A DNA stretch of 64,000 bases from Macrostomum lignano (Eukaryota). The notes below the pieces were generated by a model that saw nothing but the letters and a program-made list of their open reading frames with translations, had not been told where the DNA came from and did no database searches. The stretch is taken from positions 118,912 through 182,911 of the forward strand of contig NIVC01000641.1 in the NCBI GenBank assembly GCA_002269645.1. The letters are read 5' to 3'. Below are positions 43,901-64,000 of this stretch, piece by piece. Every line of letters starts with the position of its first letter. The first letter of the stretch is position 1. The position numbers and the translations under genes were made by a program.

Positions 43901-46900
43901 CTAGATCACATGACGAGGTATCTACATGTAAGCGCTGTGGCCCCTGTCATTCTAGTTAGCATGGATGGTCCTTGCAAAATTAGAGGATGCTAAAGCACAC
44001 CCAGGGTCAAAGTTCAGAATGTGATTAACAAAATATGCAAACGCACCAAAGTCTCTACTCTGCACTCGAATGAATTCTTCTCAAAAGCCAAAGCGTCATG
44101 TGAATTGCCAAGAGAACAGGAGCTAAGTGGGACTTCAGCAGAGTTAAAAACGCCGAAAGTAGCAATTGTCTGATTTGGACTAAACGCACCGGCCTCAATG
44201 CATTACGAGCTACTCTTCATTCAATCTAATTTTGAAGTCTGTGTCCAATCAGCAGGAAATTTGATTGATGTGCTCCACGGTGGCCCTATATGTTCATTTT
44301 GTGACGCATAAAATCAGGCTAAACTCAGGGAAAGTTTGAGTGCAGAAATGCGCACTTTGATTGGAGAATATACCCACCCCTTACTGATCCCACTCCGCAG
44401 CTGCACAATCAGTTAACAACCCGGAAGTTTTGCTCTCAATTAAACCCATTTAAGATTGAAATCATTTCAGTGAACCGTGTCTCCCTCTCTCTCAAACTTA
44501 ATCAGCTCAATAATGGCAAAGTGATCAGACTCAGAGGGCAGACCTTGCTATAGGACAGGGCTTTGACAAACTTAGCGGCTTACTAATCTACTATTTAGCA
44601 TTACTTGGTTAGGTGCTCAGTTCTGTGCAGGGAGAAACCTGAAGCTACAGACTTGCTGAGACCGTGAGTACCGTTTATTGACATTCAGCCACTGCCCAAT
44701 TTAGACTTTAACTAAGCTTTCAACTCGCAGCTAAATGCGTTAGAAGTCTGTCCGTGGATTTAGTAGGCTACAGTGCCCCCCCCCCACCCAGAGGCCTCCA
44801 GTCCGGTACACACCGCTGTTTCAGTGATCAATGTGGAGCGAGAAGGCGAGAGTGTTGCAACGAAAGAAAGAGAGGGAGCGAGTGAGCGAAAGACGCCAGA
44901 TATTGATTTCCATATCCGACTGATACAGAAATTTTGTCCGAAGAAAAATGTCTTTAAGTGACATGCGACTCCAGGGTCAGCAGAGAGACGGAACTGCGAT
45001 AGTCGTTGGCGGTTAGTAAAGAATTTCGGTCTGATTTGGGGGACTGTGATGGCCAGAGGCTCCGATTAGGGCTGTCAATCCGATTGGGGATTAGGCAATG
45101 CTAACGACCTTAATTGATCACCCCCGTTAGTAGGAAAAGGATTTTGGGATAAAGGGGACTGGGATAATGCTGGTAAAGGGTGGGTTAGGGGAGAGGGACA
45201 CTGACAGCTGTGAGGGAAATGGTGAAGGAGTAGCAGAGACAAGAGAGAAAAAGAAGCATACGGCAGAGAGCCCTGAAGCAATAGAAACAAAATTTGAGAA
45301 GCCGGACAGACAGGAGAGCGATATGGATGTGGGGGCAGAGTAGCTGGAAAAGTCTCTGGTTCGATACCGTTTGCGGTCACAATACTTAGACGAAAATTAA
45401 CCTCGGGGGGGGGGCTTTTCATACGGTTACCAGTCTCTAGTGGTCTCAGTTACCACTCATGAGGGCCAACTCCTCTGTCACAGAGTTGTGTACATGCTGG
45501 ATAATTAGAACTTCTGGGTCACTGTACACCTCGTGAGACCGTGCACCTTTCTATATTAGTGGCAGTGCTCAAAGCCCCCTGCGAGCTGACTTACTATAAG
45601 AAGCCATGGAGGATACCAAAGAGATGTTGCAGAGACTTCTTTGAGAAACAGAACGAGATATTCCCCAAATTCTCTACCGGTCGCTCTGTCAACTTCTGTT
45701 CCTATCTGCTCAAATTCAAATCGATTGAGTGGAAAGAGTTAAAAAAGTTTGCGAAACTGACGGTGAGGCAACGAAGTCCACAGCCTCCTCAAGCCGCAGG
45801 TCCATCTCTTCCAGTCACAGCGTCCAACTTAGCAGTTAGTCTGCAACTACTGGAGACAGCTGTTCCGCTTACATTGGATTCACTCGGTACGGACCAGTAG
45901 TAGGTAAAGCTGGGGGGATAGGGCAAGAGAGGAGTAAAGAAAAAGCTGAGGAACGCGAAGCGGCGGAACGGCGACACTCGAAATTAGCTGGGCGGCGTCT
46001 CAGCGCACGGCCGAGTCCGCCCCCAGCCCACCGCCCATTCGCACAATGGCTTTTTTATTATCCGCGATATTTCTCTGCGAATGTTCGCCCGCCTGGGTGC
46101 GCAGGAATTGATTGACAGCAGAGCCCCATCGCTCGACTCAGAAATCTCATCGGTTGCACTGATGAAGGCCGGGTCTTGGGGCGCGTGTTTTCTGTATGAC
46201 GCGAGACTGGAAAGAGTCTGGGATGGCGGCTAAGGCCCATAGGGGGGGGGGGGCTGTTTGTCCTCCGTGCGGCTGCGGAACAACTGAGCAAACAGGCCGC
46301 GATGGGGCAGAAATAGAGAAGGAATGAATAATGCTGTTGTTGCACTTTCTGTACAAGAGAAGCCTTTAGCAGTGAGCTGCTGTTGAATCGCGATTCAATT
46401 AGAAGCTGCGGCTGGCAGCTTGCGGATAATACGAAAATTGATCTTCATCTCAATAACAGCTCGGGGTCTCCAACAGCAACAACTGTCATCTCAATAGCAG
46501 ATCGGGGTCTCCAACAGCATCAACTGTCATCTCAATAACAGCTCGGGGTCTCCAACAGCAACAACTGTCATCTCAATAGCAGATCGGGGTCTCCAACAGC
46601 ATCAACTGTCATCTCAATAACAGCTCGGGGTCTCCAACAGCATCAACTGTCATCTCAATAACAGCTCGGGGTCTCCAACAGCAACAACTGTCATCTCAAT
46701 AACAGCTCGGGGTCTCCAACAGCAACAACTGTCATCTCAATAGCAGATCGGGGTCTCCAACAGCATCAACTGTCATCTCAATAACAGCTCGGGGTCTCCA
46801 ACAGCAACAACTGTCATCTCAATAACAGTTCGGGGTCTCCAACAGCAACAACTGTCATATTTTCAACACTAAATACCTACTCTTCTAAACGATTACTAAC

Positions 46901-48223
46901 ATTCTAGTATGCGTAGAATGCATAAAATAGAATTCCAATATGCATATTGGTAAGAGTTGGCCTTTAATGGAGTCTAATGTACAAGTTTTTCAAAGTAAAT
47001 TATCACAAAGTTCTACTAGAGTATTGGGGACCAGAAAAGTGACAATAATTTTTTTGCGCTCTTAGACAAATAAATCAGTGAGATGAAAGCTGTCTGGTTC
47101 TTGATTTTCGTTTGTCAGTCTCAAGTACCATTGTTTTCCTAAATCACAACCTATGAGACCAAATGCATAGAAGCTTCATTTGGTCTCCTAAAGACAGTGA
47201 GCGATTTTCAATTTTGGTACTAAACAAGGAAACATCCTATTGCACTGGTGCATTCTGAAACGAAATTGGGATTCTCCTTTTATTGTCAGTGGTCCTTGAG
47301 TACAGTTGGGCTCTCCAATCGGAATGATGACTGCCACCTCACAAAATGCTAAGGATCCCACCAATGAGGCAACTCACCAATGGTGGTGATGACTGCCACC
47401 TCACAGAATGCTAAGGATCCCACCAATTAGGCAACTCACCAATGGTGGTGATGACTGTCACCACAAACAGCAGCGCCCCGGCAAAGTTCCAAGTGTAATC
47501 CCGCTCAGACAAGCTCCCATTCCAGCCGTCGTCCTTCACGAACACGGTTACGTTGGCAACTATGCGGTTTACAGTGTCATTGAGCACGCGCAGCAGCAGC
47601 TGTTGACTGGTCTCGGTCGCAGTGGCCGCCTCTGCCAGTGCTGCCGCCACCGGGATTCGCCCTTCACCGCTGCTGATGTTCAGCAGACCAACTGCAGTTG
47701 CGCTTGTTGTCGCTGTGTCGCCCACTGTGGTAGTCGGCGCTTGCGTAGCGACCTTCGGCTCGGAGCAGACAAGCCGCAGCTCCTTGAGCCAGGCTTCCTG
47801 ATAGCTGCGCACCCGCTCCTTCAGCTGTCTCTCGTGCGGCATCTCGATGGCCTGGAAGATCAAGCCGCCAACGAATGTGTAAGCAACAATAAGACCGGAC
47901 AGGCCAATGTGGCTGAACACGAAGGCCAGGAAGCGCTTGCAGAAGGTTTTCGTCTGACGGATCCGACGTCGGCGACGTTCACGTCGTTTCAACTCTCGGC
48001 GCTCCTGCCGCGACAGCTTCTGGCGTCGGGATGCTTGAGGCTGCAGTTGCTGCTCCTGCTGCTCTTGCTGCTCCTGCAGTTGCTCAGGATCTCCAGCGTC
48101 ATCAGCCGCTGCTTGCTCCACGTCTGTCTGGTGCGGCTGCTGCTGAACTGCGACACTGGGCTCCCGGACAGCATAATGCTGCAGGTCCACGATGGAGATC
48201 TGAGTCTCCGATGCTGGAAGCAT
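40929..48223 (-). CDS. Large K2P/TWK channel, ~755 aa (exons 48223-47440, 43470-42924, 42689-42040, 41215-40929)
   Basis: FVFSHIGLSGLIVAYTFVGGLIFQAIE (TM1); WNFAGALLFVVTVITTIG|YGH (P1); LGIPLMFLYL (TM2); long cytosolic loop; TVPLSLSL (TM3); YFCFITLSTIGFGDIVP (P2); TM4. Exon lengths 784+547+650+287 keep frame. Confidence 0.9.
46445..46858. repeat. 41-bp intronic minisatellite (~10 copies)
   Basis: Unit CAACTGTCATCTCAATAACAGCTCGGGGTCTCCAACAGCA(A/T). Confidence 0.95.
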
Positions 48224-50418: not shown

Positions 50419-51728
50419 ATGACGGTCAGAAGCGGTGCAGGAAAATTCCTGAGGGAAAATCTGCTTCTCATTGCCACTCTGCTCGGCGTTGTGCTTGGAA
50501 TTGGGCTCGGCATTGGATTATACTTTGCTAAGCCTGGCGACACCTTGCTGCTGTGGATCGGTGAGGGATTCCAGGGGCTTAAGCACCAGGGGCTTTAGCA
50601 CCAGGGGCTTTAGCACCAGGGGCTTTAGCACCAGGGGCTTTAGCACCAGGGGCTTTAGCACCAGGGGCTTTAGCACCAGGGGCTTTAGCACCAGGGGCTT
50701 TAGCACCAGGGGCTTTAGCACCAGGGGCTTTAGCACCAGGGGCTTTAGCACCAGGGGCTTTAGCACCAGGGGCTTTAGCACCAGGGGCTTTAGCACCAGG
50801 GGCTTTAGCACCAGGGGCTTTAGCACCAGGGGCTTTAGCACCAGGGGCTTTAGCACCAGGGGCTTTAGCACCAGGGGCTTTAGCACCAGGGGCTTTAGCA
50901 CCAGGGGCTTTAGCACCAGGGGCTTTAGCACCAGGGGCTTTAGCACCAGGGGCTTTAGCACCAGGGGCTTTAGCACCAGGGGCTTTAGCACCAGGAGCTT
51001 TAGCACCAGGGGCTTTAGCACCAGGGGCTTTAGCACCAGGGGCTTTAGCACCAGGGGCTTTAGCACCAGGGGCTTTAGCACCAGGGGCTTTAGCACCAGG
51101 GGCTTTAGCACCAGGGGCTTTAGCACCAGGGGCTTTAGCACCAGGTGGCCCATACCCCCCCTCACTATGCCCTTGGACTCCTGATCAGGTGATGAGGAGT
51201 CAAAAGCGATTAGGTTGAGTTAGATTGAGATACGGAGGTAAGATTAGATTTGATGCGACAAAATGAAATAGAGGTATATGGGACTGAATAAGAGAGGATG
51301 GGATGCAACAGCCCCAGAAATTTATCGATAATATGATAGAACAATCTACTTCTGAACTCAGGTTTCCCCGGCGAGCTGGTGCTCCGAGCCTTCAAGCTGC
51401 TCATCCTGCCCCTGGTGGTGTCCTGTGTGATCAACATCACCGCCAGTAGCAGCATCAAGGCCAACGGCACCATGGGCGGGCTCGCCATGCTGTACATTGT
51501 CACCACGAACTTGATCGGCGCTCTGCTTGGACTGCTGTTCGTTGTACTCATTCAGCCAGGTGAAAACTGGATGCACCAGATAGAGGTGAAAGCGGGGGGG
51601 GGATCAGGCTTGTCAAATACGGGCTAAAATTGCCAACCCCATTCAACCCCGTCGCACAAAGGCTCTTCGGATCAAGAAGGAGGCGGTAGCGGCGGCGGCG
51701 GCGGCGGCGAACCTCCCGTTAGCAGACT
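50419..51728 (+). CDS. SLC1A: SLC1A/EAAT glutamate-neutral amino acid transporter, 5' exons (50419-50560, 51362-51559, putative exon 3 from 51662)
   Basis: FLRENLLLIATLLGVVLGIGLG...WI|GFPGELVLRAFKLLILPLVVSCVI...LLFVVLIQP|G matches EAAT TM1-TM3, with phase-1 introns. Confidence 0.88.
50571..51146. repeat. Near-perfect 15-bp repeat (GGGGCTTTAGCACCA), ~38 copies
   Basis: SLC1A intron 1, starting just after the donor; one G>A variant near 50997. Confidence 0.97.
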
Positions 51729-52066
51729 AGTAGTATACGTTTTTTTGACACAAAGCCGATTTCCTTATGGCGAAATACATAGTAAGTACAGGCCCAAAAA
51801 AATGGCAGAGTCTGAAATTTGCCGTGCACGCAAACTAGCTTTTACGCAATGAATTAACCAATTAGCTGAATCACTTTTACGCAAACACCTGTCTATCCAC
51901 CTAAATTCTATCCGCAATGAATGCAGCTAATTACAAGCCCAACCAAAATTCAATTTGACACAAAGCTTATTTCGCGTATAACTTAACGCATTTAAATTCT
52001 TCTTTTCAAGCAGTATTGTATATTTCAACTAGATACAAACACAATTTGACGCACAAATTAGCGAGT

Positions 52067-52629
52067 TTACAAATATTGAGGCAGCACTCGTAAAACAAAA
52101 TTGCGTAATTTAGCATACAAGTATCGAAACGAACCAGTGCGAATTATATTCCGTTTAAAAACGCTTCGAATAAAACACTCTAGGTTTCCTCTGGTAGTCA
52201 ACTTATGAAAAATATAAAAAATTACCCAAAATCCACAACTTCCACTCTGTGGGTCTTGGATAGCAAAGCGACTATAACACCAATTTTTCGAATTTCCACA
52301 TTCTTTTCCTAGCCATTTTGCTATTCTTGGCAATGGTACTAGACCAAGAGAATCAAAATATTCACCAAGTCGTTTGCTACCGCGACCTGCTCGATGACCA
52401 TAAACCCAAACGCATACCCAATGTTTTCCGGGCAGGTTGGAGACGTCAGTATTAACGATAAAAAAAAGTCTTTACCGTCTAAAGGTAAGCGTCTAAGTCC
52501 ACCAACAAAGTTTTGAGGAAAAACACCAAGAAATACAACATTTAAAAAATGTGCGCACAATTTCGATACAACATTGCGAAGGAAGCGATCTGTTACACCA
52601 CGATCTAGGATAGAATCAATTACTTCCAT
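52067..52629 (-). CDS. PRO: Adenain-like cysteine protease, split by a 1-nt frameshift in a T8 run (52460-52467)
   Basis: FLGVFPQ in frame 0, then IVNTDVSNLPGKHWV...EYFDSLG...IQDPQSGSCGFW in the -1 frame: His-Asp-Cys triad plus oxyanion Gln. Confidence 0.88.
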
Positions 52630-53948
52630 ACTGTGCCAGGAACAATGTCGCGAAGTTCAGTCAGTTGCAGTTGCTTGTCAAATATACCTCCAAATATGAC
52701 GTTGTACACGGTACTAGTTGCAGCATTGAAGCGTAACTCTAGTTTTACATTTCCTTCCTTATACAGTTGCACTCCCCGTCCGACACCAGGTTCACTTCCA
52801 AGACTGAATGCAAAAATTGAGTAACCATTGGCGTAATCCAGCATATTAAATCCAATATCTCGTCCCTGTAGATAGATTCCAAGCTGTTGTAGCAAAAAAT
52901 TATACTCTGTCACACAATCATCTCCAAAGTTTGTCTGCAGCGGACGCGATGGTACCGAGTCTCCATTCACAAACACACCAATGCTGCTCACATTTGCATG
53001 CTCAAAGTTGAACGGATTTGTGTCCATGCTTCCATTGAATGCCTTGTTGCTTACGATTGCCATCAATAAAAGCCGTGGTACCCCACTAGGAAACAAATTT
53101 TCATGCGTATGGCTAGACGATCCTCGGGGTATAGTAAACGTACCAAGGCTTAGACTTCGGTGCGGATATAATGCATTGTGACTTTTAAGTCCATGAGCAT
53201 GTGCACTGATAACACTCGGCGAGGGTTGAACAAACCGCAATCGTAGTTCTGCACGCAAAAACTTGATCTCATAGTCTTTTAAAACCGCACCAGCTTCTAA
53301 TGTTGACCCGCTCAGGACAAATTTACTTTTTGCCGGTATGAGCTTGATCCGTAGTGGTGTCTTTGATAGTACATGTAGATACCGAGGCTGACGAAACAAA
53401 TCCAAGAATAACGGCCCCGATACAGTGCACCGCCTATTGTTAGCAATGAGCGCCTGCCTCTTTGTTCGTCCATCGTTTTCACTTGTTGCATTCATTTTAC
53501 CAGCTGTATCCTTGTAAAACCCCCACGGCAGTAAACCAGCCTTCTGAGCTGTATGTCCATATTCCAGTAATGTAAGAAGCATAGCCTTGTATGGATACAT
53601 AAAACTACCACCTTCAACTACAGTATCGCCAATAGTAAATTGAACGTCCTCAAACAATGTTCCAATAACCAAATTATTCAAACAAACAAAATTTTTCGTT
53701 GCATCTATAGGTTCACCTTCACTATCACTAACGCTGAAGCATACCGTGAGCACAGTTTCTTGTAGATCCAAATACAAATCGCCTGCAGGCACAACTTCAA
53801 ATTCGATAGGTGATCCTTTTGTAATACCATGTTGCGGTTGAATGTTAGTATATCGATTATCCAAAACACTAAACTGAACAGGACTTTGATCAAATAGCGA
53901 CAATTCACTTTTAAGAGCAGCAATATCAGGTCCAAGCAAATGGTTCAT
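52620..53948 (-). CDS. MCP: Double-jelly-roll major capsid protein
   Basis: MNHLL...KSELSLFDQSPVQFSV, LDLQETVL, TLFEDVQF, YPYKAMLLTLL, GPLFLDLFRQPRYL, NPFNFEH, GYSIFAFSL; typical Polinton capsid motifs, intact ORF. Confidence 0.92.
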   Translation of the reverse strand: MNHLLGPDIAALKSELSLFDQSPVQFSVLDNRYTNIQPQHGITKGSPIEFEVVPAGDLYLDLQETVLTVCFSVSDSEGEPIDATKNFVCLNNLVIGTLFEDVQFTIGDTVVEGGSFMYPYKAMLLTLLEYGHTAQKAGLLPWGFYKDTAGKMNATSENDGRTKRQALIANNRRCTVSGPLFLDLFRQPRYLHVLSKTPLRIKLIPAKSKFVLSGSTLEAGAVLKDYEIKFLRAELRLRFVQPSPSVISAHAHGLKSHNALYPHRSLSLGTFTIPRGSSSHTHENLFPSGVPRLLLMAIVSNKAFNGSMDTNPFNFEHANVSSIGVFVNGDSVPSRPLQTNFGDDCVTEYNFLLQQLGIYLQGRDIGFNMLDYANGYSIFAFSLGSEPGVGRGVQLYKEGNVKLELRFNAATSTVYNVIFGGIFDKQLQLTELRDIVPGTVWK

Positions 53949-53949
53949 G

Positions 53950-54408
53950 CTACTTTTCAAACAGACTAAAAAGTTTCTTGCTTGCAGTAGCAGTTCGACG
54001 TTTTCCTATACCACCGGTCTTCTTGCGTTTTCTTTTGTTCACGCGTCCCTTTCCACACTGTCTTGTTCGTCGTTTCTTTTGCCGTTTCTTCTTTCCTAAG
54101 CTTATAGCCACTCCACTGGTTCTTTTCCTTCGCTTTGGTCTCGAAACTGCAGTTGTATTAAACATCTCTTCGCTCGATTCTGTGTCCAAGTGACGCTTCC
54201 GACCCATACCAATTTTTGCTGTCGCACTTTTCAAATACTCCAGACCACGATCCAAGAAATCTTTCTTTGCGTTGCGTAGTACAGGATACACCAATCTGTC
54301 CGCCAAATTTGACAAAAAACCGTAACCTTCGTAAACAGGAATGCCATATCCACCTCCACCTTCAGCAGATCTATTCGGACCAGAATAAAAAGCAAAAATA
54401 GGATCCAT
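53950..54408 (-). CDS. pVI/core-like virion protein (amphipathic N-part, very basic C-part)
   Basis: MDPIFAFYSG...VYEGYG|FLSNLADRLVYPVLRNAKK then a K/R-rich tail; syntenic upstream of MCP as in Polintons. Confidence 0.65.
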   Translation of the reverse strand: MDPIFAFYSGPNRSAEGGGGYGIPVYEGYGFLSNLADRLVYPVLRNAKKDFLDRGLEYLKSATAKIGMGRKRHLDTESSEEMFNTTAVSRPKRRKRTSGVAISLGKKKRQKKRRTRQCGKGRVNKRKRKKTGGIGKRRTATASKKLFSLFEK

Positions 54409-54449
54409 TTCAACAGTCTTCTCTTCGTCATGCAATCCCAATTCATGTG

Positions 54450-55610
54450 TTACTTATACACTTTAGAAAATAGTTTAGCAGTCTTTGCGTCAAGATCATT
54501 TTCGTTTAACCACTGACTTCTTGAGATTGGCATACCTTTCCATTTTACTAGATACAGACGACTTCCATTTTTCGCTCGATCAGTTTCAATAACTTTTTCA
54601 ATTTCATTAGGTGTTTCATCTGTCTCGTTTACCAACATTAGTTCCGCTTGGTTAAACCTTCCTTTCAGCACTTCAAATCCATCTTCAGGGTCCACTAATT
54701 CGTACATTGGCGGGTCTGTCAAGTGTACACGATGAATGCGATATTTTGAATTACTCCAAGTCGTAGTGTATCCTTTTTCAAATGTTCCTCGACGTCGTGT
54801 AATTCTAACCCAATCACCAACTTTAAATTTATTCTCATTCTTTTTAGTGTACGACTTCGCAAACATTTTGTCCCACAAAATTCCTTGTAAATGCGGGTCT
54901 GTCTCTACCCGTTTTGGTGTTTCTCCACTCAAGGATCGATGAGGACTAGAGTTGAAATTATCTTCCAATTGCGGTAAAATGTCAAACCATCGAGGTAAAT
55001 TTTTTGCTCGAAAGTATCGTAATAGACGTTCCTTTAACGAGCGGATAAATCGTTCAGCCATGCTTGCCTTGTAATTGCTTTGGCTAACAAAAAATCGAAC
55101 TCCTTCCTGTTTCAGCATTTGACGTGTAGCTCTTCCGAGAAACTCCATACCAGCATCACCTTGTAAATAAACAGGCTTAAAACCACTTCGAAAAATCTCT
55201 AGTAATACTTGACTAACTTCTGAAGGCTTCTTTGTACGCAATGGTCTTAGTCGTACAACTCTAGTAAAACAGTCGATAAGAACAAGTATGTAACGATAAC
55301 CTCGATTTTCCGTCTTGTATTGAGGTAAATCTGCCAAATCGATTTGAAACTGAAACTTTGCAACTGGTGGCACACTAATTTTTGGAGTTGGAAATTTTCG
55401 TCGTGTTTTTCGAAATAAATGATGCTCATTTGTTGATCGCACCCAATTATCAACTTCGCGCTTTGCAACTTTGTTCGTAATCTGTGGAAACTTTTTACGT
55501 ACTTCACGAACAAGTATAGTCTTGTTACCACTAAATGAAGTAGGCCTGTTCAAGTTAAAAAAAGCATCCGTCAAAAATTCTTCAATTTCCTTACGCACTC
55601 GCTTCATCAT
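54450..55610 (-). CDS. INT: Retroviral-like (c-)integrase with C-terminal SH3-like and chromodomain
   Basis: QIDLAD, VLIDCFTR, LQGDAGMEF, ASMAERFIRSLK (D,D,E); FKVGDWVRI...FEKGY; IEKVI...YLVKWKG...SQW chromodomain. Confidence 0.95.
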   Translation of the reverse strand: MMKRVRKEIEEFLTDAFFNLNRPTSFSGNKTILVREVRKKFPQITNKVAKREVDNWVRSTNEHHLFRKTRRKFPTPKISVPPVAKFQFQIDLADLPQYKTENRGYRYILVLIDCFTRVVRLRPLRTKKPSEVSQVLLEIFRSGFKPVYLQGDAGMEFLGRATRQMLKQEGVRFFVSQSNYKASMAERFIRSLKERLLRYFRAKNLPRWFDILPQLEDNFNSSPHRSLSGETPKRVETDPHLQGILWDKMFAKSYTKKNENKFKVGDWVRITRRRGTFEKGYTTTWSNSKYRIHRVHLTDPPMYELVDPEDGFEVLKGRFNQAELMLVNETDETPNEIEKVIETDRAKNGSRLYLVKWKGMPISRSQWLNENDLDAKTAKLFSKVYK

Positions 55611-55779
55611 CAGTTAGATTGATGCTAGTCGTTTGACAGTTGCAACAAAAGAACGAAGCCTCGATCGAATCTCCGTCAGTATCCTCGTTGTGCTCCTTTC
55701 CCAGAAACGGCACACATTCAGATTTTATGCAAAAAAACTCACAGAGACGAATCAAAAGTTTTTGGAAGATAGATGACAT
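55591..55779 (-). CDS. Small Cys-rich hypothetical protein (62 aa)
   Basis: ATG 57 nt downstream of a TATAAGC motif; CEFFC...C...CCNC; fills the gap between ORFs. Confidence 0.4.
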   Translation of the reverse strand: MSSIFQKLLIRLCEFFCIKSECVPFLGKEHNEDTDGDSIEASFFCCNCQTTSINLTDDEASA

Positions 55780-55891
55780 GGTTTGTCTTATTAAACTATA
55801 TATTTTTCATAAACAAAAAATTAACCTTTTTAAAAAGCTTATAGTGCTCGAATCAATTTTGTTAAAACGTAATCTGTAATTTTAAAACAAC

Positions 55892-56581
55892 TTAATTCAG
55901 TGTTTGATAATTTTCAAACAGACTAAGATCCTCCTTTGCAACAGTTTTTGGAGCAGACATTAGCTCGTTTCGTACATGACGCCCGATTTGGTTTGCTGCG
56001 ATTCCACGTTTTCGAAGAAAGTCTAAAAATGTTTTTAGTCCACTAGGCGGTTGAGTCTCGTGTCGCTTAAGCGGTCTGTCTCGAACAACATATTCCATGA
56101 GATCTTGTATCTCGGCATCAGTCAAATTAGCCAGCATTGGTTCTGCATTCTTGTCCATGTCCGAAAATAGGTTTTGAGCGAGAGCTTCGAAACGTGGTAA
56201 AAAAACTTTAGGAATTTCCCTTGATTCGCTGGCATATGAACTTCTTACAGTAGTCCCTTTGCGAACAAGTGACAGATTGTCCTCGTCTCCAGTGCGATAG
56301 ACTTTGCGCAATTTTAAAAGTTTGTCTTCCAATCTGCTTCGTTTCAATTGAGCTGTGTAATTTGGCTCCTTTTCCATTTCCTTGTCCAAGTTATCCATTT
56401 GGTCTCTCATTTCCACCATATTTTTTGCCAGAGCATCTTGCGGTGCGTCTAAAACTTCAGTTTTTCGAGGTGTCTCAGCAGTTGGTGACGATCCTTGCTC
56501 TGCACCTTGACATGCAGATTGATACACAGATTCAGGTACTAGATACATTCGTTGAAAACTACTACTCTCGTTAGTTCGCAT
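55892..56581 (-). CDS. Hypothetical Polinton protein (229 aa)
   Basis: Intact ORF with N-terminal RMYLVP motif, of the (R/K)MxLVP type seen in Polinton proteins; co-oriented in the cassette. Confidence 0.7.
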   Translation of the reverse strand: MRTNESSSFQRMYLVPESVYQSACQGAEQGSSPTAETPRKTEVLDAPQDALAKNMVEMRDQMDNLDKEMEKEPNYTAQLKRSRLEDKLLKLRKVYRTGDEDNLSLVRKGTTVRSSYASESREIPKVFLPRFEALAQNLFSDMDKNAEPMLANLTDAEIQDLMEYVVRDRPLKRHETQPPSGLKTFLDFLRKRGIAANQIGRHVRNELMSAPKTVAKEDLSLFENYQTLN

Positions 56582-56591
56582 TATATTCCTA

Positions 56592-57020
56592 CTACTTTCG
56601 TTGAATTGATCGTATTAAATTCGCTGCTCCCGCGGCGGTACCAACTACTCCAGACGTTATCCCAAGCGCAGTGCTTATAGCAGGTAGAGCGGCAATAATT
56701 GGAGCCAAAAAAGGTAAAAATCCTCCGTGTTGGACAAGTATTTTCCTTTTTGCAGTAATTGGAGTCTTCTGTTCCAAAAGCTGGCGTATATATCTGCGAT
56801 GCTTCTCAAGTCGTCTTTTGTTACAGTTACTAATTTTAATACGTCCACTAATAATATTAAACAGAAAGTCTACTAGACATCGTATCTCCGACTCTGAAAG
56901 TGTTTGTAAAAAACTTTTTCTCTGCTTTGGATGCTTTAGCCGATAAACAATTTGTAGTAAAAAAGCACACTGACACAATGAGCGAGCATTTTGTTTTCCT
57001 TTTTCTGTTAGTTCGCTCAT
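56592..57020 (-). CDS. pX/Mu-like core protein
   Basis: Basic helical domain followed by QHGG|FLPFLAPIIAAL, closely resembling adenovirus pX (RGG|FLPALIPIIAAA). Confidence 0.75.
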   Translation of the reverse strand: MSELTEKGKQNARSLCQCAFLLQIVYRLKHPKQRKSFLQTLSESEIRCLVDFLFNIISGRIKISNCNKRRLEKHRRYIRQLLEQKTPITAKRKILVQHGGFLPFLAPIIAALPAISTALGITSGVVGTAAGAANLIRSIQRK

Positions 57021-57076
57021 TCTTACAAAACAAATTCACAAAATTTTCTATTACACAATTAATCTTTGCTTATAAA

Positions 57077-58066
57077 TTAGTCCGACCTATGTTTAAAATG
57101 CAGTACGACAACAACGTGTGCTCCCGGATGAAAATTAAACGGTTTTCCGCGCTGGTCCGATAGTCGAATCGAAATCTCGTGAATTTGTTGTCGATTTGTT
57201 TTCAAGTAGTAGGGTGTTTGCAATGCACTGCTATCGCGTATAAGTTCTCCGTTTTTCTTTTGTTGGAGTTCCACAACTCGAAGCAACGGTACTGATGTAC
57301 TTCCCACTGCTTGATACTCGATTATATCTGTGTAACAGTACATGTAAACCGTTTTACTAGGCATCGGAGAAGGTAGCACAGCATCCAAGTAGGTTTTGTT
57401 AATGCGCCAAACACGATTTCTCAACCAATATTGGTGTACTTTGATGTACACTTCTCCTTCCGTTTTTCGAAGATAGTCTCCATGCGAAACAAGTCGTATA
57501 GCTTCACCAGGCGATAGAACACAATAAAAAACATAATAGTTCTCAGGTACTAGCGCTAGAGTATTGTCGAGACTTTTTATCAAATCCAAGTATGAACCAT
57601 CCGGTGGTTGTACACTACCAGCGGCAGGTTTTGATAATTTTTCCGAGACAAGTCCAGAAAGTTTCTTCCAAGAGTCAAATTTGAAAGCGTCCATAAATGT
57701 AACTGGTAGTTCTAATCCAATAGTTTTTTCGCCTGAATTTCGTAAAAGCCAGGCAAATTTTTCATCTGTACCAGACGGTTGCCAGGAAACGTAAGCATCC
57801 AAGTCTGCCTCTGCCCAAACACGACCCCAATAGTTTTTCTTTAATCGTATTATTGAGTCAATGTCCGCAAAATATGGAACTTCAAATCGACGCTCACGAT
57901 GAGCATTTGGCGTCGTAATTGCTCCATGGCACAGTAATTCAACTAGTGCAACCTCGAAGAATCCGTTCAATAAATTTATTGGTTCAGTTAGTCGCACTCG
58001 AAATTCATTAGGCGAGTTGGTTTCGTAACTGATATCGTTTGACGGCAAAAAAACGTAAAAACTCAT
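57077..58066 (-). CDS. mCP: Minor capsid protein (penton)
   Basis: SFYVFLPSN...NEFRVRLTEPINL...FEVALVEL; YCYTDIIEYQAVG...PLLRVV; ISIRLSDQRGKPFNF...VVLHFK. Confidence 0.9.
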   Translation of the reverse strand: MSFYVFLPSNDISYETNSPNEFRVRLTEPINLLNGFFEVALVELLCHGAITTPNAHRERRFEVPYFADIDSIIRLKKNYWGRVWAEADLDAYVSWQPSGTDEKFAWLLRNSGEKTIGLELPVTFMDAFKFDSWKKLSGLVSEKLSKPAAGSVQPPDGSYLDLIKSLDNTLALVPENYYVFYCVLSPGEAIRLVSHGDYLRKTEGEVYIKVHQYWLRNRVWRINKTYLDAVLPSPMPSKTVYMYCYTDIIEYQAVGSTSVPLLRVVELQQKKNGELIRDSSALQTPYYLKTNRQQIHEISIRLSDQRGKPFNFHPGAHVVVVLHFKHRSD

Positions 58067-58123
58067 TTTGAAATAAAACACAAACTAATATTGACAACAG
58101 TTTATAATTTGCTTATAATAATA

Positions 58124-58813
58124 TTACACAAACTTTGCATCACATTCACGAGTATAGACAACTTGTTCATCACCAGAAAATATTCCTGTTCTCAATCGTA
58201 AAAAATCTGGTGTCACTTGCCGCAGGTCAATGAATAAATATGAAAAAGGTTTGTTATTTGTTGCGTCTTCATACACATTCACTAGAAACCTACTATTACG
58301 CGGATACATTTGTCGACCGAGATGTTCAACTGTGGTTCGATCGCGCACACTACGAGTTAGACAAATATAACTAGCTGATAAACTTCGCATGCGTGCTTCT
58401 GGATCAGACTTGTTAAAAAGACCTTGACAAAGGTACAGACAAGTCAAAGGGATATGATGCGCATGCTTTGTAAACATACTAGTAAATTCTGGCAACTTAG
58501 CAATCTCGCTTTGCAAGTCGTCAACAACAACCAAATCGTGTGGTAAAAAACGATTAATCATCTGTGGTGTGAATTCGGGTACAAAAACAATAGGGTCAAG
58601 ACCGCTTTTTTGCCAGCATGTTCTAATTCGTTGTTGATCGTCTGGTTTCAAACTTGATCCATGGCACCAAACAAGACGGCACGGTTTTTTATCAAATAAT
58701 TCTTTTCGTTCAGTCAACAAACGCAACGTCCATTCAGTTTTACCCGAGTTTGAAGGTCCAGCAATAATAAATGTAGAATCGTGAGCTAGTTGCATATTGT
58801 ATGGCTGCTGCAT
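58124..58813 (-). CDS. A32/FtsK-like genome-packaging ATPase
   Basis: Walker A GPSNSGKT, Walker B LVVVDD, FTKHAHH, CQGLF, PFSYLFIDL. Confidence 0.93.
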   Translation of the reverse strand: MQQPYNMQLAHDSTFIIAGPSNSGKTEWTLRLLTERKELFDKKPCRLVWCHGSSLKPDDQQRIRTCWQKSGLDPIVFVPEFTPQMINRFLPHDLVVVDDLQSEIAKLPEFTSMFTKHAHHIPLTCLYLCQGLFNKSDPEARMRSLSASYICLTRSVRDRTTVEHLGRQMYPRNSRFLVNVYEDATNNKPFSYLFIDLRQVTPDFLRLRTGIFSGDEQVVYTRECDAKFV

Positions 58814-58815
58814 TT

Positions 58816-59259
58816 TCAAGCACCAAAGCGTTGCTTAACTTGCATAACCTTGGTAACCAACTTCGCAGCTAGTTTTTCTTTCCAACCAGTAGACGGATCG
58901 TGGGCAATCTCTCGTGCACCAGATTCTAATAGCTTATCAGCTTTTAACCTCTCTTGCACGTCAGAATTTTTATCATAGGCCACGTCGTGAAGCATGCACA
59001 AATTGTCAAGCCGATTAATTCCTCGTTGTCCTTTTGCTAGCCTAGCTTGCAGTTGCGTACCTGGACCACAAAACTGATATCCGCCGGGTAAATGTGCTTC
59101 AAATGGTAAATGATTAATTAACCAATTTACGACACCATAACCTTGTTGCTTTTTATTAATCTTTCTAATAGATTTCTTCTTTTTACGAATGCTCTTCTTT
59201 TTCTTTTTAAAACCTCGATCTTTCGCTGGAGACATTTTTACAACATATATTTTAGGCAT
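58816..59259 (-). CDS. Parvovirus-VP1u-like phospholipase A2 domain protein
   Basis: YQFCGPGT Ca-loop and DNLCMLHDVAYD catalytic helix (HD...Y); basic N-terminus. Confidence 0.85.
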   Translation of the reverse strand: MPKIYVVKMSPAKDRGFKKKKKSIRKKKKSIRKINKKQQGYGVVNWLINHLPFEAHLPGGYQFCGPGTQLQARLAKGQRGINRLDNLCMLHDVAYDKNSDVQERLKADKLLESGAREIAHDPSTGWKEKLAAKLVTKVMQVKQRFGA

Positions 59260-59350
59260 AAATTTTTAAAATTGCTTATAGTATTTACAAAGCTCTCGCA
59301 TAGTGCACCAATCACCAAAGAAAAAAATCAGTTTATTATTATTATTATAC

Positions 59351-59833
59351 TTATTGGCCAGTGCTGCCAAAGCCGCCAAAGCCGCGCCGCTTGGTCGGCG
59401 GCTCAATCATCCGAATCGAATTGTCTGCTTCAGTCACATAGACTGAAGCAAGCACGGCCTGCTCCAGAACCAGTTGTGCAATACTGAGCCCGGCATAGTA
59501 CTCAAAGTCTTCCGGACTGTAATTAAACAAGACTATACAGATTTCACCAGTATAGTCGGGGTCGATTACGCCACCGCCAACAAATAAGCTGTGCAGAGCC
59601 ATGCTGGAACGTCCCGCTATCCTGCCATAGGTACCAGGCGGTAAGCGAATTTTGAGTCCGGTTCGCACACTCCGGGACTCGTAGGCCGGAATGGTACCAT
59701 CGACGCCAGCGCAAAGATCATACCCGATCGACCCGACAGTTTTTCGGGTCGGAATCGTTGCCGAATCGTATAGACGTTCAACTAAAAGCTTACGATCAGT
59801 TAGTTGTTGTTGCTGCTGCTGCTCGGGATTCAT
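59351..59833 (-). CDS. dut: dUTPase
   Basis: All five motifs: GSIGYDL, GRSSMA, GGVIDPDYTGEI, IAQL, RGFGGFGSTG. Confidence 0.95.
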   Translation of the reverse strand: MNPEQQQQQQLTDRKLLVERLYDSATIPTRKTVGSIGYDLCAGVDGTIPAYESRSVRTGLKIRLPPGTYGRIAGRSSMALHSLFVGGGVIDPDYTGEICIVLFNYSPEDFEYYAGLSIAQLVLEQAVLASVYVTEADNSIRMIEPPTKRRGFGGFGSTGQ

Positions 59834-60124
59834 GTCGATTCTTGTAGCTGAAAGTTTAAAAAAAGTTTTTTTTCTTGAAACATGAACGATAGCACTACAT
59901 TTACGTCTACTACAAACACAAGCTTAGTCTTGAGAATCTAACTATAAAAAATATACTTTTTCAAATAATTAAACACAAAAAAGTGCTAAAATTATAATTT
60001 AAACGAATGCCGGTATCATTTATTTATTGTAAATAATGATCAATGAAAAAATTAATGATGGGTTACAGTCTTCTATAGCATGCTATTACTTTGTACAACA
60101 AAAGAGATCAGAGCATATTGTTAA

Positions 60125-60455
60125 TTAATTAGCCAAGTGCCAGTGTCCAAAGGGTAGCGAATTAATTGAACTTGTCCAGGATCGCTTCGTATCGAAGAAG
60201 CTTAGTGCAAGTTTTCTTTGTTGCATCAAAAAAAACTTTCTGTTTTCGAGAACGAATGGACTGCATGCGCGAAAACACAAGTTGTCGCTTGTGTAAGACT
60301 CTTAAATAGTCTTGATGCTTTAAACTGCTCTGTGCGGCTTTAGAAGCAGTACTGCTCCAGCTTTGCGACCGATTGAGACTGGAACTTTAAACGATTGCTG
60401 CTTAACCAGACCGGACCGGACTGGACCGGACCGGACTGGACCGGACTCCCCGCGC

Positions 60456-60487
<32 letters not shown>

Positions 60488-61221
60488 ACCACCACCGCCG
60501 CCACCACCACCACCACCACGCCGCCACCACCACCACTGCCGCCGCCCGCCCCCACACCACCGTGGGACGTATTTGTTGACAGTGTGCTTGCATGGCTTTT
60601 GCGATAAACGCAGAGCATCAAGTCTAGCTGCTCGATTGCTCTATATTGCCAATTACTACCTCGAGATTGAAAATTGTCAATTTTTATTAACAACTGATTA
60701 ATAACGCGTGCGAACCAGTCATTGTAGGCCTCGGGAGATAACAGCATGTCACTGTTTGCAATCGTCTCATCAAATGATATTGTCGCAATGTTGGTATTAA
60801 AATAGACCGAAATGATCTCTTCGCTGCTCGAGCCATCGTTGTCGTCTGCTGCTGTTTTCGGTCGAAATAGTGTCACTTTCAAGTGAAAGCAGACTCTTAT
60901 TAATAAACTGGGTGAGCCAATTTTTTCCAATATTTTAAATATTGGTTCTCTTAAAGACGCAATCAACTCGCCAGGAAGTAACTCGCCAGAGCTGTTGCCT
61001 TGTTGTTCAAGAGTGGGAGTAAATTCGACAAAATTTACCCGACCACGATGAGCTGACTCGCGCAAAGCGATGGACCACCCATCTGGTGGGTTTTCGATCA
61101 GGTTTTGCAGCGATCCGGTCAGTAATCGTTGCGGTGAAAAACAAGCACCATGCGAGTGAGCATGCAGCTCGGCTTGATTACTGAACTTTTTTCTGCAGAT
61201 TTGGCATTGTGCACGCGGCAT
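60125..61221 (-). pseudogene. pPolB: Protein-primed PolB, internally deleted (N-terminal domain 61221-~60565 plus C-terminal ~70 aa ~60345-60125)
   Basis: N-part has a C2H2 finger and DNFQSRGSNWQYRAIEQLDL. The C-part reads LKHQDYLRVL...IRSRKQKVFLMQQRKLALSFFDTKRSW...SLPFGHW* after removing one T from a T8 run (60228-60235). No exonuclease or palm motifs lie between them. Confidence 0.8.
60405..60562. repeat. GC-rich junction: (GGACC/GGACT)n pentamers plus (GCC)n/(ACC)n
   Basis: Sits exactly at the pPolB deletion junction inside AT-rich viral DNA. Confidence 0.85.
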
Positions 61222-61441
61222 TGTGTGCACCTAGCTCGACAACGAGCGTATCGAGCATAATATTAATAGATGATCCGGTTTGTCATTTGCGGCTGTAAGA
61301 AAAATGATGATTTGGTTAGTTATAGGTATAGCTGACACGTTTACTATTAGAGAAAACAATTGGTAAATAAATAAAAAAAGACAAAATGTTTGTAAAAGAA
61401 TGCATCGCAACTGCGATTTGACAGCAATTGTTTATGTTAAG

Positions 61442-62035
61442 TTAGTTATTAACAGAGATTAAAAAATCCTTGACATGGTTAAGAATATTATTCAATTCAT
61501 GAGTGTTTTGAACGCCCATAATAACAAACTTTTTCGAAAAAAATATGTTACAAAAAAGCCTTGGTTTTGATGCTGATCTAACAGAAACTGCTTGTGGGAA
61601 ATTTTCTGCATCGTATCCAACCAGATAATTCGAATAGTAGCCTGCATATCTTTTTAGACTAGAGAAACCGAATTTTGGCCAAAGATGACCAATAAAGCCG
61701 ACATAGGTACTGCTCTGAATTTTTACTGAATCAAAATCTACACAATTAATAGTGTCGTTGATAAATCGTAAACTGAGACTATCTGAGAATTTGATTTACA
61801 GCCATATATAGTTAGTTTTCCTGCTGGATAAAGTTGGATTTTAGCATTTGAATAAATTGTCTTTAGCATTGTTGGTCGGCTTAGGAATAGTTTGCAAAAC
61901 CGGTTTCTGGTCTGTAGCTTCTGTTTGGTCTGCTTTAAATCAAATTTTTCAAACGGGTGCAGCTTCAGACTCGCAGTAACTATTAATAGGACAAGTCGCT
62001 AAAACGGAAAATAAATAATAAGAAAAGTTAAACAT
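61442..62035 (-). CDS. TBP-fold (TATA-binding-protein-like) protein; 1-nt frameshift at ~61764; start unresolved
   Basis: Repeat 1: IVTASL..FDLKQ...AKIQLYPAGKLTIYGCKS. Repeat 2: KIQSS...YDAENFPQAVSVRSASKPRLFCNIFFSKKFVIMGVQN...ILNHV*. The span 61998-61442 is ~185 codons, the size of the TBP core. Confidence 0.72.
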
Positions 62036-62207
62036 GACTATACTATCGTAAATTCTAATATTAAATTACAAAACCTGGTTAGCGTACAAGGAGTAGCAAA
62101 AAATGTTTTGAGCTTTTCCCTAAAAATAATATTTCCCTAGCCAAAAATTTGATAAATATAGTGGAATAAGTTAGTTAAAACTTGGATAAAATTAGTCAAA
62201 AATTTTG

Positions 62208-63403
62208 TTACTCATCATCAGAGCTGCTGTACGAGTCGTCCGATGAAGACACGCTAGCTGTAGTAGCGTCCGCAGCAGCACGCTTTAAAAATGCTGTCTC
62301 CTTGGACGCTACCCTGGTTCCAGAGGCAGGTGTACTCACCAAGATCTTTGCTGGTGGAGCCTCCACCCAGTCTGTGCCATCTGCACCAGCTTCGGCAGAA
62401 TTGTTTTGCTGTTTTGCACCGCTGCGTTTTCGAACTTGCTTTTTAGGCGGCGGGTTCAATAGAGGCTGGCGCTGCATTCGATGTAGTCGACTTCTTCGAT
62501 ACGGTGGTGGTAGACCGACGCTTTGCAGGTGACTTGGCAGGTGTCACCTGGCTTGAATTCTGCAGGCTTTGTTCATTTGCTTCTTCTTGCTCACAGGTAG
62601 ATGTTGGGGACGGACTCCTGCTTCTAATTGCTGACTTGGTCGCGGGTAGGTGTGCAAGCACTCCCTTGAACATGTCGAGGCGCTGCAACATGTTGTCGGA
62701 AGATTCTATGAGTGTCAGAGAGCGCACAGCGAATGTAATGCGCAGACGAGGCAGCCTTTTGGACAATACAAGCTCGTTGCTTGCACTGTCATTTGGTAGG
62801 TACCGCTGACACCTTTGAAATCGGAAATGGACACCTCCTTCCCGTGTGGATGATCGTTGCTGATCCTGATTGTGGCACAAGGGTAAGCAGGCTTTATAGC
62901 CAGCCATTGTTGAGGCACAAACTCGAGGACGTCGTTAGCATGCTGATGAGCTGGTTTTGTTAGTCGTGCCAAGGGTCGAGCATCTTGAATCTCGTTCAAC
63001 TTGACCGATAGACCTTTTTCGACTTGACTGCAAAACATTATATAAATTATGAATATAGTTTCCTAAAATTAATTGTATAAATTTAATATGGTGCTCACCG
63101 GAGAGAGTGGAAGAGTTCCTTATCGCAGCTGTCTGGATGAAATTGGACACTTACTGCGTCGCGAGAGTCGTGTCTGCAAGACGGATGATCGAGCTCTGGC
63201 CTTTCTGCGATTCCACAAAAAGCTCCATTGGAGCCTTGGTTTGCAATATAATTGGGTACCATTTTGTACACTCGATTGATGTTTCCACGCAATAGATCGA
63301 AACTGGCAGGACGAACCAGTCGTGTTGTAGACTGCTCTCCAACGTAAAAAATCGGACTCGAGTCGGAGCGTACAATTGACTCCGTCTTGATGCAAGCTGC
63401 CAT
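62208..63403 (-). CDS. Hypothetical spliced protein, possibly OB-fold ssDNA-binding with acidic tail; 71-nt intron 63098-63028; two apparent frameshifts
   Basis: ATG at 63403; CG|GTGAGC...TTTTGCAG|T phase-2 join restores frame; beta-rich segment GTYQMTVQATSLY...RITFAVRSLTL; ends SSDDSYSSSDDE*. Confidence 0.4.
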
Positions 63404-64000
63404 GTCTTACAAGCAATTGAAATATAGTATTTCTTTTGCTGTAATGATTGAGCTCATGAAAAATTGACCATTTCGGGTCTTGTATTTATAGCAAGCATTG
63501 CATGCTTTTGAACTAGTAAACAAATTTAATTGTTGCGTGCTGATTAAGACATTGTTGCGTGCCAAAGTGGCATAAGTTTCTAGGGTGGTTGCATGATTAG
63601 TCTAATTTTACGCAAATGTAGGTTGATATTTTATACAATAAAATTAATGAATCTTAGGCACACTAGTTTAAAATTTGCAAGAGTAACACGATGGCAAGCG
63701 TTTAATAAGAAGACTGCTGGTTGCTGCTTCATTAGATTGTTTTGTTCTCAAGTAGAATGTAATTAAAATATTTTGCGACTTGAAAAAATTAGCAATCTTG
63801 GATTTTAGAGTAAAATAAGCTGCACGCGTGCTATGAAATTAATTTATTGAAGTTTTGCTTGCATGTTGGAATTTTTAGCTCGCACGGTGACAAGAGATTG
63901 CTTGAGTAACCTATATATAGAGTGTTACTTTTCAAACAGAAAAAGGTATAGTTGTAACTCAGCTTTTGCAGTCCTATATTGAGCAGAAGCTATATAGAGT

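Follow-up and report, generated by a model that had tools for sequence, protein, structure and literature searches.

A conserved variant TATA word before the capsid-module genes of a Macrostomum lignano Polinton, with a candidate reader in the element's own TBP-like protein

The 64,000-nt stretch of Macrostomum lignano DNA analysed here (the window; contig NIVC01000641.1, positions 118,912 to 182,911 of the forward strand) ends in a minus-strand copy of a Polinton/Maverick element, designated family A, within a 764-Mb animal genome. Six genes or gene pairs of its capsid module stand behind a short word, TATAAG[C/T]AA, which we read, with a probability of roughly 0.6, as the family A late core promoter, served by the element's own divergent TATA-binding protein (TBP) and recruiting host RNA polymerase II. 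In reading direction, the copy comprises two spliced early open reading frames (ORFs), a TBP-like gene, a polymerase remnant, a dUTPase, PLA2, a putative ATPase, a penton-like gene and pX, followed by a 229-aa ORF, a small ORF, an integrase with a chromodomain, a basic 152-aa ORF, a double-jelly-roll (DJR) major capsid protein (MCP) and a protease:

51729..64000, minus: family A copy of a Polinton/Maverick, truncated at 64000 where the contig ends; sister-copy identity stops at 51729
61442..61998, minus: coding exon of the TBP-like gene, which begins at a conserved 3' splice acceptor; frameshift near 61771
60340..61221, minus: zinc-finger N-terminal remnant of the polymerase gene, the body being missing at about 60326
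59351..59833, minus: dUTPase (PF00692, E 1e-29)
58816..59259, minus: PLA2-like gene (PF08398, E 3e-9)
58124..58813, minus: putative packaging ATPase (Walker A GPSNSGKT), 2 nt behind PLA2
57077..58066, minus: penton-like gene (putative minor capsid protein, so labelled from its position); no Pfam match
56592..57020, minus: pX-like core protein gene (PF05829, E 2.3e-6)
55892..56581, minus: conserved 229-aa ORF (ORF 56581), 10 nt behind pX, without a conserved box
55591..55779, minus: small ORF, overlapping the integrase start
54450..55610, minus: retroviral-type integrase (PF00665, E 4.5e-8) with chromodomain (PF00385)
53950..54408, minus: basic 152-aa ORF (ORF 54408; putatively pVI-like in the preliminary description); no Pfam match
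52620..53948, minus: DJR MCP; predicted model matches the Sputnik, iridovirus, PBCV-1 and mavirus MCPs (E 2e-15, TM 0.61)
52070..52629, minus: adenain-like protease, overlapping the MCP stop; frameshift near 52462; weak PF00770 match (E 0.038)

The element is a member of the Polinton/Maverick group, with terminal inverted repeats (TIRs), a target-site duplication (TSD), a DNA polymerase of the protein-primed family B type (pPolB), a retroviral-type integrase and a DJR MCP. Among related copies, TIRs of 130-196 bp starting AGTAGT are present in four from three subfamilies and were not found in four other comparisons, the window copy itself being truncated by the contig end, and a 6-bp TSD is found in two of the four relatives having both ends. 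The polymerase matches PF03175 at E 2e-6 in a family A sister copy and at E 2e-12 in a second Polinton of the same genome, Polinton family B, in which the protease counterpart matches PF00770 at E 4e-5; the MCP profile returned no PDB sequence match. The available excerpts of PMC8502044 describe the same inventory for Polintons, Mavericks and adintoviruses (pPolB, integrase, ATPase, protease, DJR MCP, pX and PLA2, with AGTAGT termini, TIRs and a 6-bp TSD). The window copy is defective: its TBP-like gene and protease are frameshifted, and it lacks ~3.2 kb, polymerase body included, that another copy has at about 60326. The same short distance from TBP to MCP recurs in many near-identical copies, which suggests the spread of a non-autonomous derivative.

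Eight TATAAG words lie on the minus strand within 52758-59280, the number and places reported in a preliminary description made from the DNA letters: six TATAAGC, with their first T at 59280, 58117, 57074, 56679, 55843 and 54106, one TATAAGT at 54458 and one TATAAGG at 52763. The spacings given there are reproduced when counted as gaps after the 7-mer (38, 44, 47, 57, 91 and 151 nt) or after the 6-mer (44 and 128 nt). Its remark that TATAAGC was not seen on the plus strand of this region is correct; one TATAAG exists on that strand (57239, TATAAGT). A strand-resolved comparison with shuffled controls, as had been proposed, gave six sense TATAAGC in the 7.36-kb structural module (limits set by gene position after the sites had been seen) against a shuffle mean of 0.39, with none of 300 shuffles reaching six and no antisense copy; the window as a whole shows no TATAAG enrichment (21 copies against 31 expected).

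All eight words had been proposed as promoter boxes, and six of them stand: those before PLA2, the penton-like gene, pX, the small ORF, ORF 54408 and the MCP. These boxes, with their distance from the first T of the box to the start codon and their state in five family A subfamilies, are as follows:

59274..59280, minus: TATAAGC box, PLA2; 45 nt to ATG 59235; exact in 4/5, the fifth TATATGCAA at 33 nt (68 in sister copies)
58111..58117, minus: TATAAGC box, penton-like gene; 51 nt; exact in 5/5, at 46-54 nt from the start
57068..57074, minus: TATAAGC box, pX-like gene; 54 nt; exact in 5/5
55837..55843, minus: TATAAGC box, small ORF/integrase unit; 64 nt; exact in 4/5, the fifth TATATGCAA at 56 nt
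54452..54458, minus: TATAAGT box, ORF 54408, overlapping the last integrase codons; 50 nt; exact in 4/5, the fifth TATTAGCAA at 52 nt
54100..54106, minus: TATAAGC box, MCP, inside the ORF 54408 coding sequence; 158 nt; exact in 5/5

For PLA2, the second ATG (59235) is taken as the start, since the first (59259, at +21) is missing in a close copy, L003 (L, C and P numbers are our labels for loci, contigs and clusters). Two words were set aside. The TATAAGC at 56673..56679 (minus) spells the pX codons Ala-Ile-Ser, occurs in the near-identical subfamily only, being absent from L004 and from four diverged subfamilies, and is probably a chance occurrence within coding sequence. The TATAAG(G) at 52758..52763 (minus), in which the next base is G and not C/T, encodes Tyr-Lys of a conserved MCP LYKEG; TAT AAG appears there in three of five subfamilies, close to the codon-usage expectation (0.54 x 0.59), the word recurs in the MCP of family C, a third Polinton of this genome, and the site is probably a coding coincidence.

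Conservation was assessed on one structural module from each of the five TBP-bearing subfamilies in the genome (MCP identity about 100, 80, 75, 70 and 66%), the check in relatives that the preliminary description had envisaged. Between subfamilies, four-fold-degenerate sites of the MCP agree at only 23-37%, which means that neutral sequence has reached saturation. TATAAGC nevertheless occurs 6, 4, 5, 5 and 5 times in sense (25 in total) and never in antisense, is the top de novo 7-mer, and reaches its observed count in none of 300 local shuffles in any of the five modules. Across six genes and five subfamilies, 27 of the 30 slots carry an exact TATAAG[C/T], and the remaining three differ by one mismatch (TATATGCAA twice, TATTAGCAA once) with G6-C7 kept. 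G6 and C/T7 are thus retained in 30/30 slots, with no reversion to a canonical box; one slot reads TATTAGC. These words give the consensus TATAAG[C>T]AA, or TATA[A/T]G[C/T]AA in its wider form; of 28 sites, 21 and 22 have A at the first and second positions after the 7-mer. The MCP box is written as nnT-ATA-AGC under five different flanking peptides, for which codon usage predicts about 0.02 per lineage, and no ATG intervenes between it and the MCP start in any of the five subfamilies. Such constraint on otherwise saturated sequence indicates that the TATAAG[C/T] motif is real and under selection.

The six boxes define six units, four of which carry a second gene (PLA2-ATPase, pX-ORF 56581, small ORF-integrase and MCP-protease). 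No conserved box, exact or with one mismatch, was found for the ATPase, ORF 56581 or the protease, the ATPase having an exact word in only one of five subfamilies, nor does the integrase have a conserved box of its own. In the four gene pairs (58816-58124, 57020-55892, 55779-54450 and 53948-52070, minus), the box stands only before the first gene, and the second gene starts within 10 nt behind the first or overlaps it by 10-20 nt. One subfamily (L010-L012 and L015, about 1370-1650) carries tandem repeats of the stretch ahead of PLA2 and hence 4-6 successive TATAAG words.

The geometry of the box was derived from 28 sites, comprising the 27 exact slots and one ATPase box in one subfamily. The box-to-start distance falls within 41-64 nt at 21 of the 28 sites, with a minimum of 41 nt; relative to the upstream stop codon, the box lies anywhere between about 170 nt before it, within the gene, and about 190 nt past it. 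The 840 nt at +6 to +35 contain 18 ATGs that are not starts; the 933 nt further on contain only 1, against 13.5 expected from module density and 7.9 from the ATG density in control leaders, those of genes without a box (P 0.003). The cut at +36 was settled after scanning +25 to +40, which gave P 0.18 at +25, 0.06 at +30 and +33, and <=1e-4 from +35 to +40. This pattern, together with the spacing, would fit transcription starting about 30-35 nt beyond the first T and a leader that is then scanned. No clear initiator word was found, only a mild A excess at +28/+29. TA precedes the box at none of 27 late sites, nor does any of them have a canonical TATAWAWR in the interval 35-170 nt ahead of the start; the box itself departs from TATAWAWR at every site by G at position 6 and C/T at position 7. 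The RNA evidence consists of four presumed-RNA runs, as assembled contigs of flat depth that are blind to starts, strand and level; they show no joint or loose end at any box, though the early-unit intron is seen in three of them. Conservation, spacing and upstream-ATG pattern together support the earlier idea of a variant TATA box at about -30, and a TATA-type core promoter is, on this sequence evidence, very probable.

The first early gene opens differently, behind a canonical TATA box and across an intron:

63483..63490, minus: canonical TATA box TATAAATA before the first early gene, 87 nt before ATG 63403
63028..63098, minus: GT-AG intron of 71 nt joining the first two early ORFs; joint present in contigs of three of four runs, from three studies

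A canonical box (TATAAATA, TATAAAAG or TATATAAG) precedes the first gene in 6/6 loci from four subfamilies, the homologue in the fifth not having been located, and the early halves of the six loci (38.8 kb) contain no non-canonical TATAAG[C/T]. The canonical box claimed for the 63403 gene is thus present, and the division into early-canonical and late-variant genes is supported, with early and late assigned by gene type. The dUTPase is mixed: two subfamilies have the variant box before their copies, another has a canonical one, and the window has neither. Early genes use several canonical words, whereas late genes use one fixed word per family. Further acceptor- or donor-like words occur in the early region at about 61293 and about 62338 (minus).

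The TBP-like exon is present in five of five subfamilies, at 39-46% identity to that of the window's subfamily, and its splice acceptor is conserved in all five; true acceptors here are a pyrimidine-rich T-tract followed by (C/T)AG. Genome matches to the TBP piece number 71, 26 of them near-identical with an open 185-aa frame, and an open-frame copy matches PF00352 in two stretches (E 2.2e-7). The predicted model is a two-repeat TBP (pLDDT 88), and its best Foldseek hits are all TBP (E 9e-8). Pfam and the predicted fold together indicate that the TBP-like gene is genuine. In one subfamily (L028:3711-5117 and L029, minus), the TBP-like frame continues in frame into deoxynucleoside-kinase (dNK)-like sequence, and in another (L025, L027) it overlaps a dNK gene (PF01712), which the window's subfamily does not have there.

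Invariant positions make up 11 of 29 DNA-facing residues and 16 of 156 others (Fisher 5e-4), the DNA-face list having been mapped by eye after the alignment was seen. Positions equivalent to yeast L114, V122, V161 and L205 have become invariant polar residues (Q, T, T and N), and the equivalents of F190, P191, R196, F207, K211 and the acidic stirrup (D and E in 6/6) are kept. The two-repeat fold and these retained residues are common to cellular TBP and TRF (PF00352), from which the family A protein differs by its about 23% identity to host TBP, its long branch and the replacement of a hydrophobic DNA face by invariant polar residues. Host TBP (C70/C713/C1301) and a TRF-like paralogue (C350/C3090/C3513; L053, L052) each gave three matches with both repeats in one frame; a search of the genome for host TFIIB gave 15 matches, counted before grouping into genes.

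In the mechanism we propose, host TBP would fire the canonical TATA of the early unit, which is transcribed and spliced and includes the TBP-like exon. The TBP-like protein would then bind the variant box through its polar-remodelled concave face, and, because the acidic stirrup is kept, host TFIIB may be recruited. The six boxes laid out along the module would drive the six late units, and sister copies would activate in trans those whose TBP gene is broken; the window copy, frameshifted in its TBP-like gene, could as assembled be served only in this way. Position of the RNA start, binding, sign of effect and timing are what we infer for this late switch. Given a TATA-type core promoter, reading by the element's own TBP is probable. 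That part of the preliminary description gains indirect support from the remodelled DNA face, the retention of G6 (27 sites) and the occurrence of three families with three TBPs and three boxes, with the qualification that the TBP gene of this copy is frameshifted.

The two distant Polinton families sharing the genome, B and C (MCP about 28-31% identical to family A), each combine a TBP-like gene with a late-gene word. The family B protein matches PF00352 at E 9e-25, and its box TTAAGAA occurs 8, 9 and 8 times in sense and never in antisense. The family C protein is very divergent (profile E 1e-6, Pfam 9.5e-5, hhalign 95%), with features from Atlas pointing to TBP as well, at a weak recognition score, and its box TATAAATA occurs 6 and 6 times in sense and never in antisense. 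Each family's word is its top de novo 7-mer, and cross-use is rare: one TTAAGAA in the five A modules and one in C, one TATAAGC in B, and no TATAAATA in A or B modules. The shortest box-to-start distances in B and C are 41 and 43 nt. The B and C modules are less independent, as the copies compared are about 85-88% identical in MCP. These observations suggest that each of the three families has a private late-gene switch. A tentative extension, which we consider possible but somewhat short of an even chance, is a set of orthogonal TBP/word pairs, one per co-resident family (A, TATAAG[C/T]AA; B, CTTAAGAA; C, TATAAATA), each activating its own capsid genes and defective copies in trans. Such pairs, if real, would amount to a sigma-factor-like address code in eukaryotic viruses and would provide natural TBP variants of altered specificity that remain able to engage host TFIIB.

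In the TBP tree, A, B and C each form one clade; the join of A and C is flagged as long-branch, so the tree is compatible with one TBP capture or with several. A profile search of 1.84 billion proteins placed about ten clusters in the A/B/C TBP-like clades (P0001-P0008, P0010, P0011), two of them labelled Macrostomum lignano. Family B (L041-L049, L055, L057-L063) is abundant, carries a PC4-like coactivator gene (PF02229, E 8e-5), and has its (C)TTAAGAA box also 73-79 nt before its own TBP gene, where a feedback loop is possible. Near the end of one family B element, L041:2217-2961 (plus) is a 24-nt tandem array with TTATAAGCC. Family C (L017-L019, L064, L069, L071-L075) has TATAAATA before six structural-region genes and TATATAAG before early genes; one of its subfamilies has a Fic-domain gene, and no polymerase match was found in the copies examined, though many copies exist.

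The most serious competitor, which we hold to be unlikely, is that host TBP or TFIID reads the box as a weak TATA, after template amplification or with an activator, while the TBP-like protein does something else, for example as a TFIIA/TFIIB/Mot1/NC2 decoy, in host shut-off or in replication. Several results favour it or weigh against the reading preferred here. In the excerpts of PMC13732139, TATAAGT and TATAAGA were active in human cells when used as minimal promoters, and a crystal structure (1QN5) has wild-type TBP with a G(-26) variant. The TBP hallmark of four intercalating phenylalanines and two central asparagines is incomplete in family A: F116 has become Y, N159 has become S or T, and the equivalents of F99 and N69 are absent. 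The overall fit of the predicted model to TBP is poor (TM about 0.42, rmsd about 9 Å), the low TM reflecting a different orientation of the two lobes. The family C word TATAAATA is a canonical TATA, the same as before the family A early gene, and the upstream-ATG test is weaker in B (P 0.025) and C (P 0.076). The by-eye mapping of the DNA-face list and the choice of the +36 cut after a scan, both given above, belong here too. Family C had been taken as a TBP-less control and was dropped after the profile search revealed its very divergent TBP-like gene; with A, B and C all bearing a TBP, there is no TBP-less Polinton relative among them. No outside relative with genomic context was found in viral contigs by MCP, MCP alignment or ATPase alignment; metagenomes gave two contigs of 1.2 kb, too short to judge, and a word-index protein search with the TBP exon gave none. 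On the other side, a weak box could vary, yet G6 and C/T7 are fixed in every slot across saturated lineages. The several early words set against one late word per family, and the concentration of TBP-like conservation on the DNA face, likewise speak against host TBP as the reader.

The same conservation and DNA-face data would fit a TBP-like protein that binds the box as a repressor, silencing integrated capsid genes that host TBP transcribes in its absence, and the lost intercalating phenylalanine could prevent a productive bend. We regard this as improbable: the invariant acidic stirrup fits TFIIB recruitment, and the site occupies the TATA position with no canonical box nearby.

Another proposal makes TAAG the initiator for the RNA polymerase of a helper virus of baculovirus or nudivirus type. 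The family A box contains ATAAG and the family B box TTAAG, both holding the baculovirus late element as given in the excerpts of PMC4893493, and promoter sharing with a helper is documented for PgVV, mavirus and Sputnik in those of 10.1101/2022.07.28.501842. A start inside TAAG would, however, put the 18 non-start ATGs at +6 to +35 ahead of the genes, and no start codon lies closer than 41 nt. Both facts argue against the earlier suggestion of a baculovirus-type ATAAG initiator. Constraint also reaches the TA before TAAG and the [C/T]AA after it, family C has no TAAG, and the elements are spliced and carry their own TBP, all of which makes helper initiation very improbable. The element showed no viral RNA polymerase gene; searching the genome for LEF-8 returned nothing, and neither did the control for that search.

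We attach an equally slight probability to an RNA-level signal, whether poly(A) or termination, a cis or trans splice site, or reinitiation. Many of the sites sit at the stop codon upstream or span it, and the word ends in AG; the distance to that stop nevertheless varies widely while the distance to the start clusters, the box is unlike the T-tract (C/T)AG acceptors, and the contig runs, as weak evidence, have no joint at it. Chance, or a by-product of AT-richness and codon use, accounts for the two discarded sites and agrees with the lack of whole-window enrichment, but for the other six it is refuted, on sequence grounds, by the shuffles, the strand bias and positional conservation at saturated divergence, and is barely credible as a general account.

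The closest known arrangement is the beta- and gamma-herpesvirus vTBP/TATT system (KSHV ORF24 and EBV BcRF1; excerpts of PMC12529657, PMC4893493 and PMC6541308), in which, as in family A, a viral TBP fold is paired with a variant TATA on structural genes while early genes have a canonical TATA. ORF24 is polar at the equivalents of L114, V122, V161 and L205 (PMC12529657, Table 1, as excerpted), as is the family A protein. It requires all four phenylalanines and is without the acidic stirrup, according to the same excerpts; the stirrup is kept in family A, whereas the F99 and N69 equivalents, kept in ORF24, are missing there. The herpesvirus protein is large and multi-domain, working in a six-member viral preinitiation complex (vPIC), whereas the family A TBP is a stand-alone protein of ~185 aa, its exon finishing in a stop codon, in an integrating element of roughly 18-20 kb, in which no vPIC partner was identified and the early ORFs gave no Pfam match. 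The departure from canonical TATA falls at position 4 in herpesviruses (TATT) and at positions 6-7 in family A (TATAAGC). In vitro, EBV BcRF1 does not discriminate between TATA and TATT, according to the excerpts of PMC4893493. By analogy, then, family A appears to work like the vTBP-TATT switch without being a member of it. Virophages and polinton-like viruses with helper promoters (PgVV-14T, mavirus and Sputnik; excerpts of 10.1101/2022.07.28.501842) likewise place one short motif before many genes; theirs belongs to the helper's polymerase, whereas the family A box has TATA geometry and the element's own TBP. The baculovirus late TAAG initiator (PMC4893493, in excerpt) shares its TAAG core with families A and B, and the start apparently does not lie inside the motif in A.

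These results bear on how capsid genes are controlled in animal Polintons and on whether an integrated element can pass to a virion without a helper. In the available excerpts of PMC8502044, 'TBP' appears only as a figure-legend gene label on MELD viruses and 'promoter' not at all; a term look-up found neither 'TBP' nor 'TATA' in the available text of PMC11161782, PMC10748475, PMC8097293 and 10.64898/2026.10.13.758929, and the excerpts of PMC2396422 give no figure for TATAAGC. A literature search outside subscription journals, Repbase entries and supplements found, in the text available, no promoter analysis or TBP-dependent regulation for animal Polintons. By comparison with these sources, what appears new here is a probable late-promoter word alongside a Polinton TBP, the herpesvirus kind of vTBP and the MELD 'TBP' label being known already. 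A self-encoded TBP with a cognate box, if true, would constitute an autonomous early-to-late switch, arrived at independently of herpesviruses and built from far fewer parts. With three divergent TBPs and three boxes in one genome, the sequence specificity of TBP becomes open to direct test, and the box word can serve as an easy tag when late genes of such elements are annotated.

Outside the element, a 15-bp tandem array at 50571-51145 adjoins its end. Further away, 41882-48223 (minus) contains host exons resembling a two-pore potassium channel, in which two scanned ORFs gave no Pfam match at 0.001 and which include the sequence TIGFGD, presumably the potassium-channel motif.

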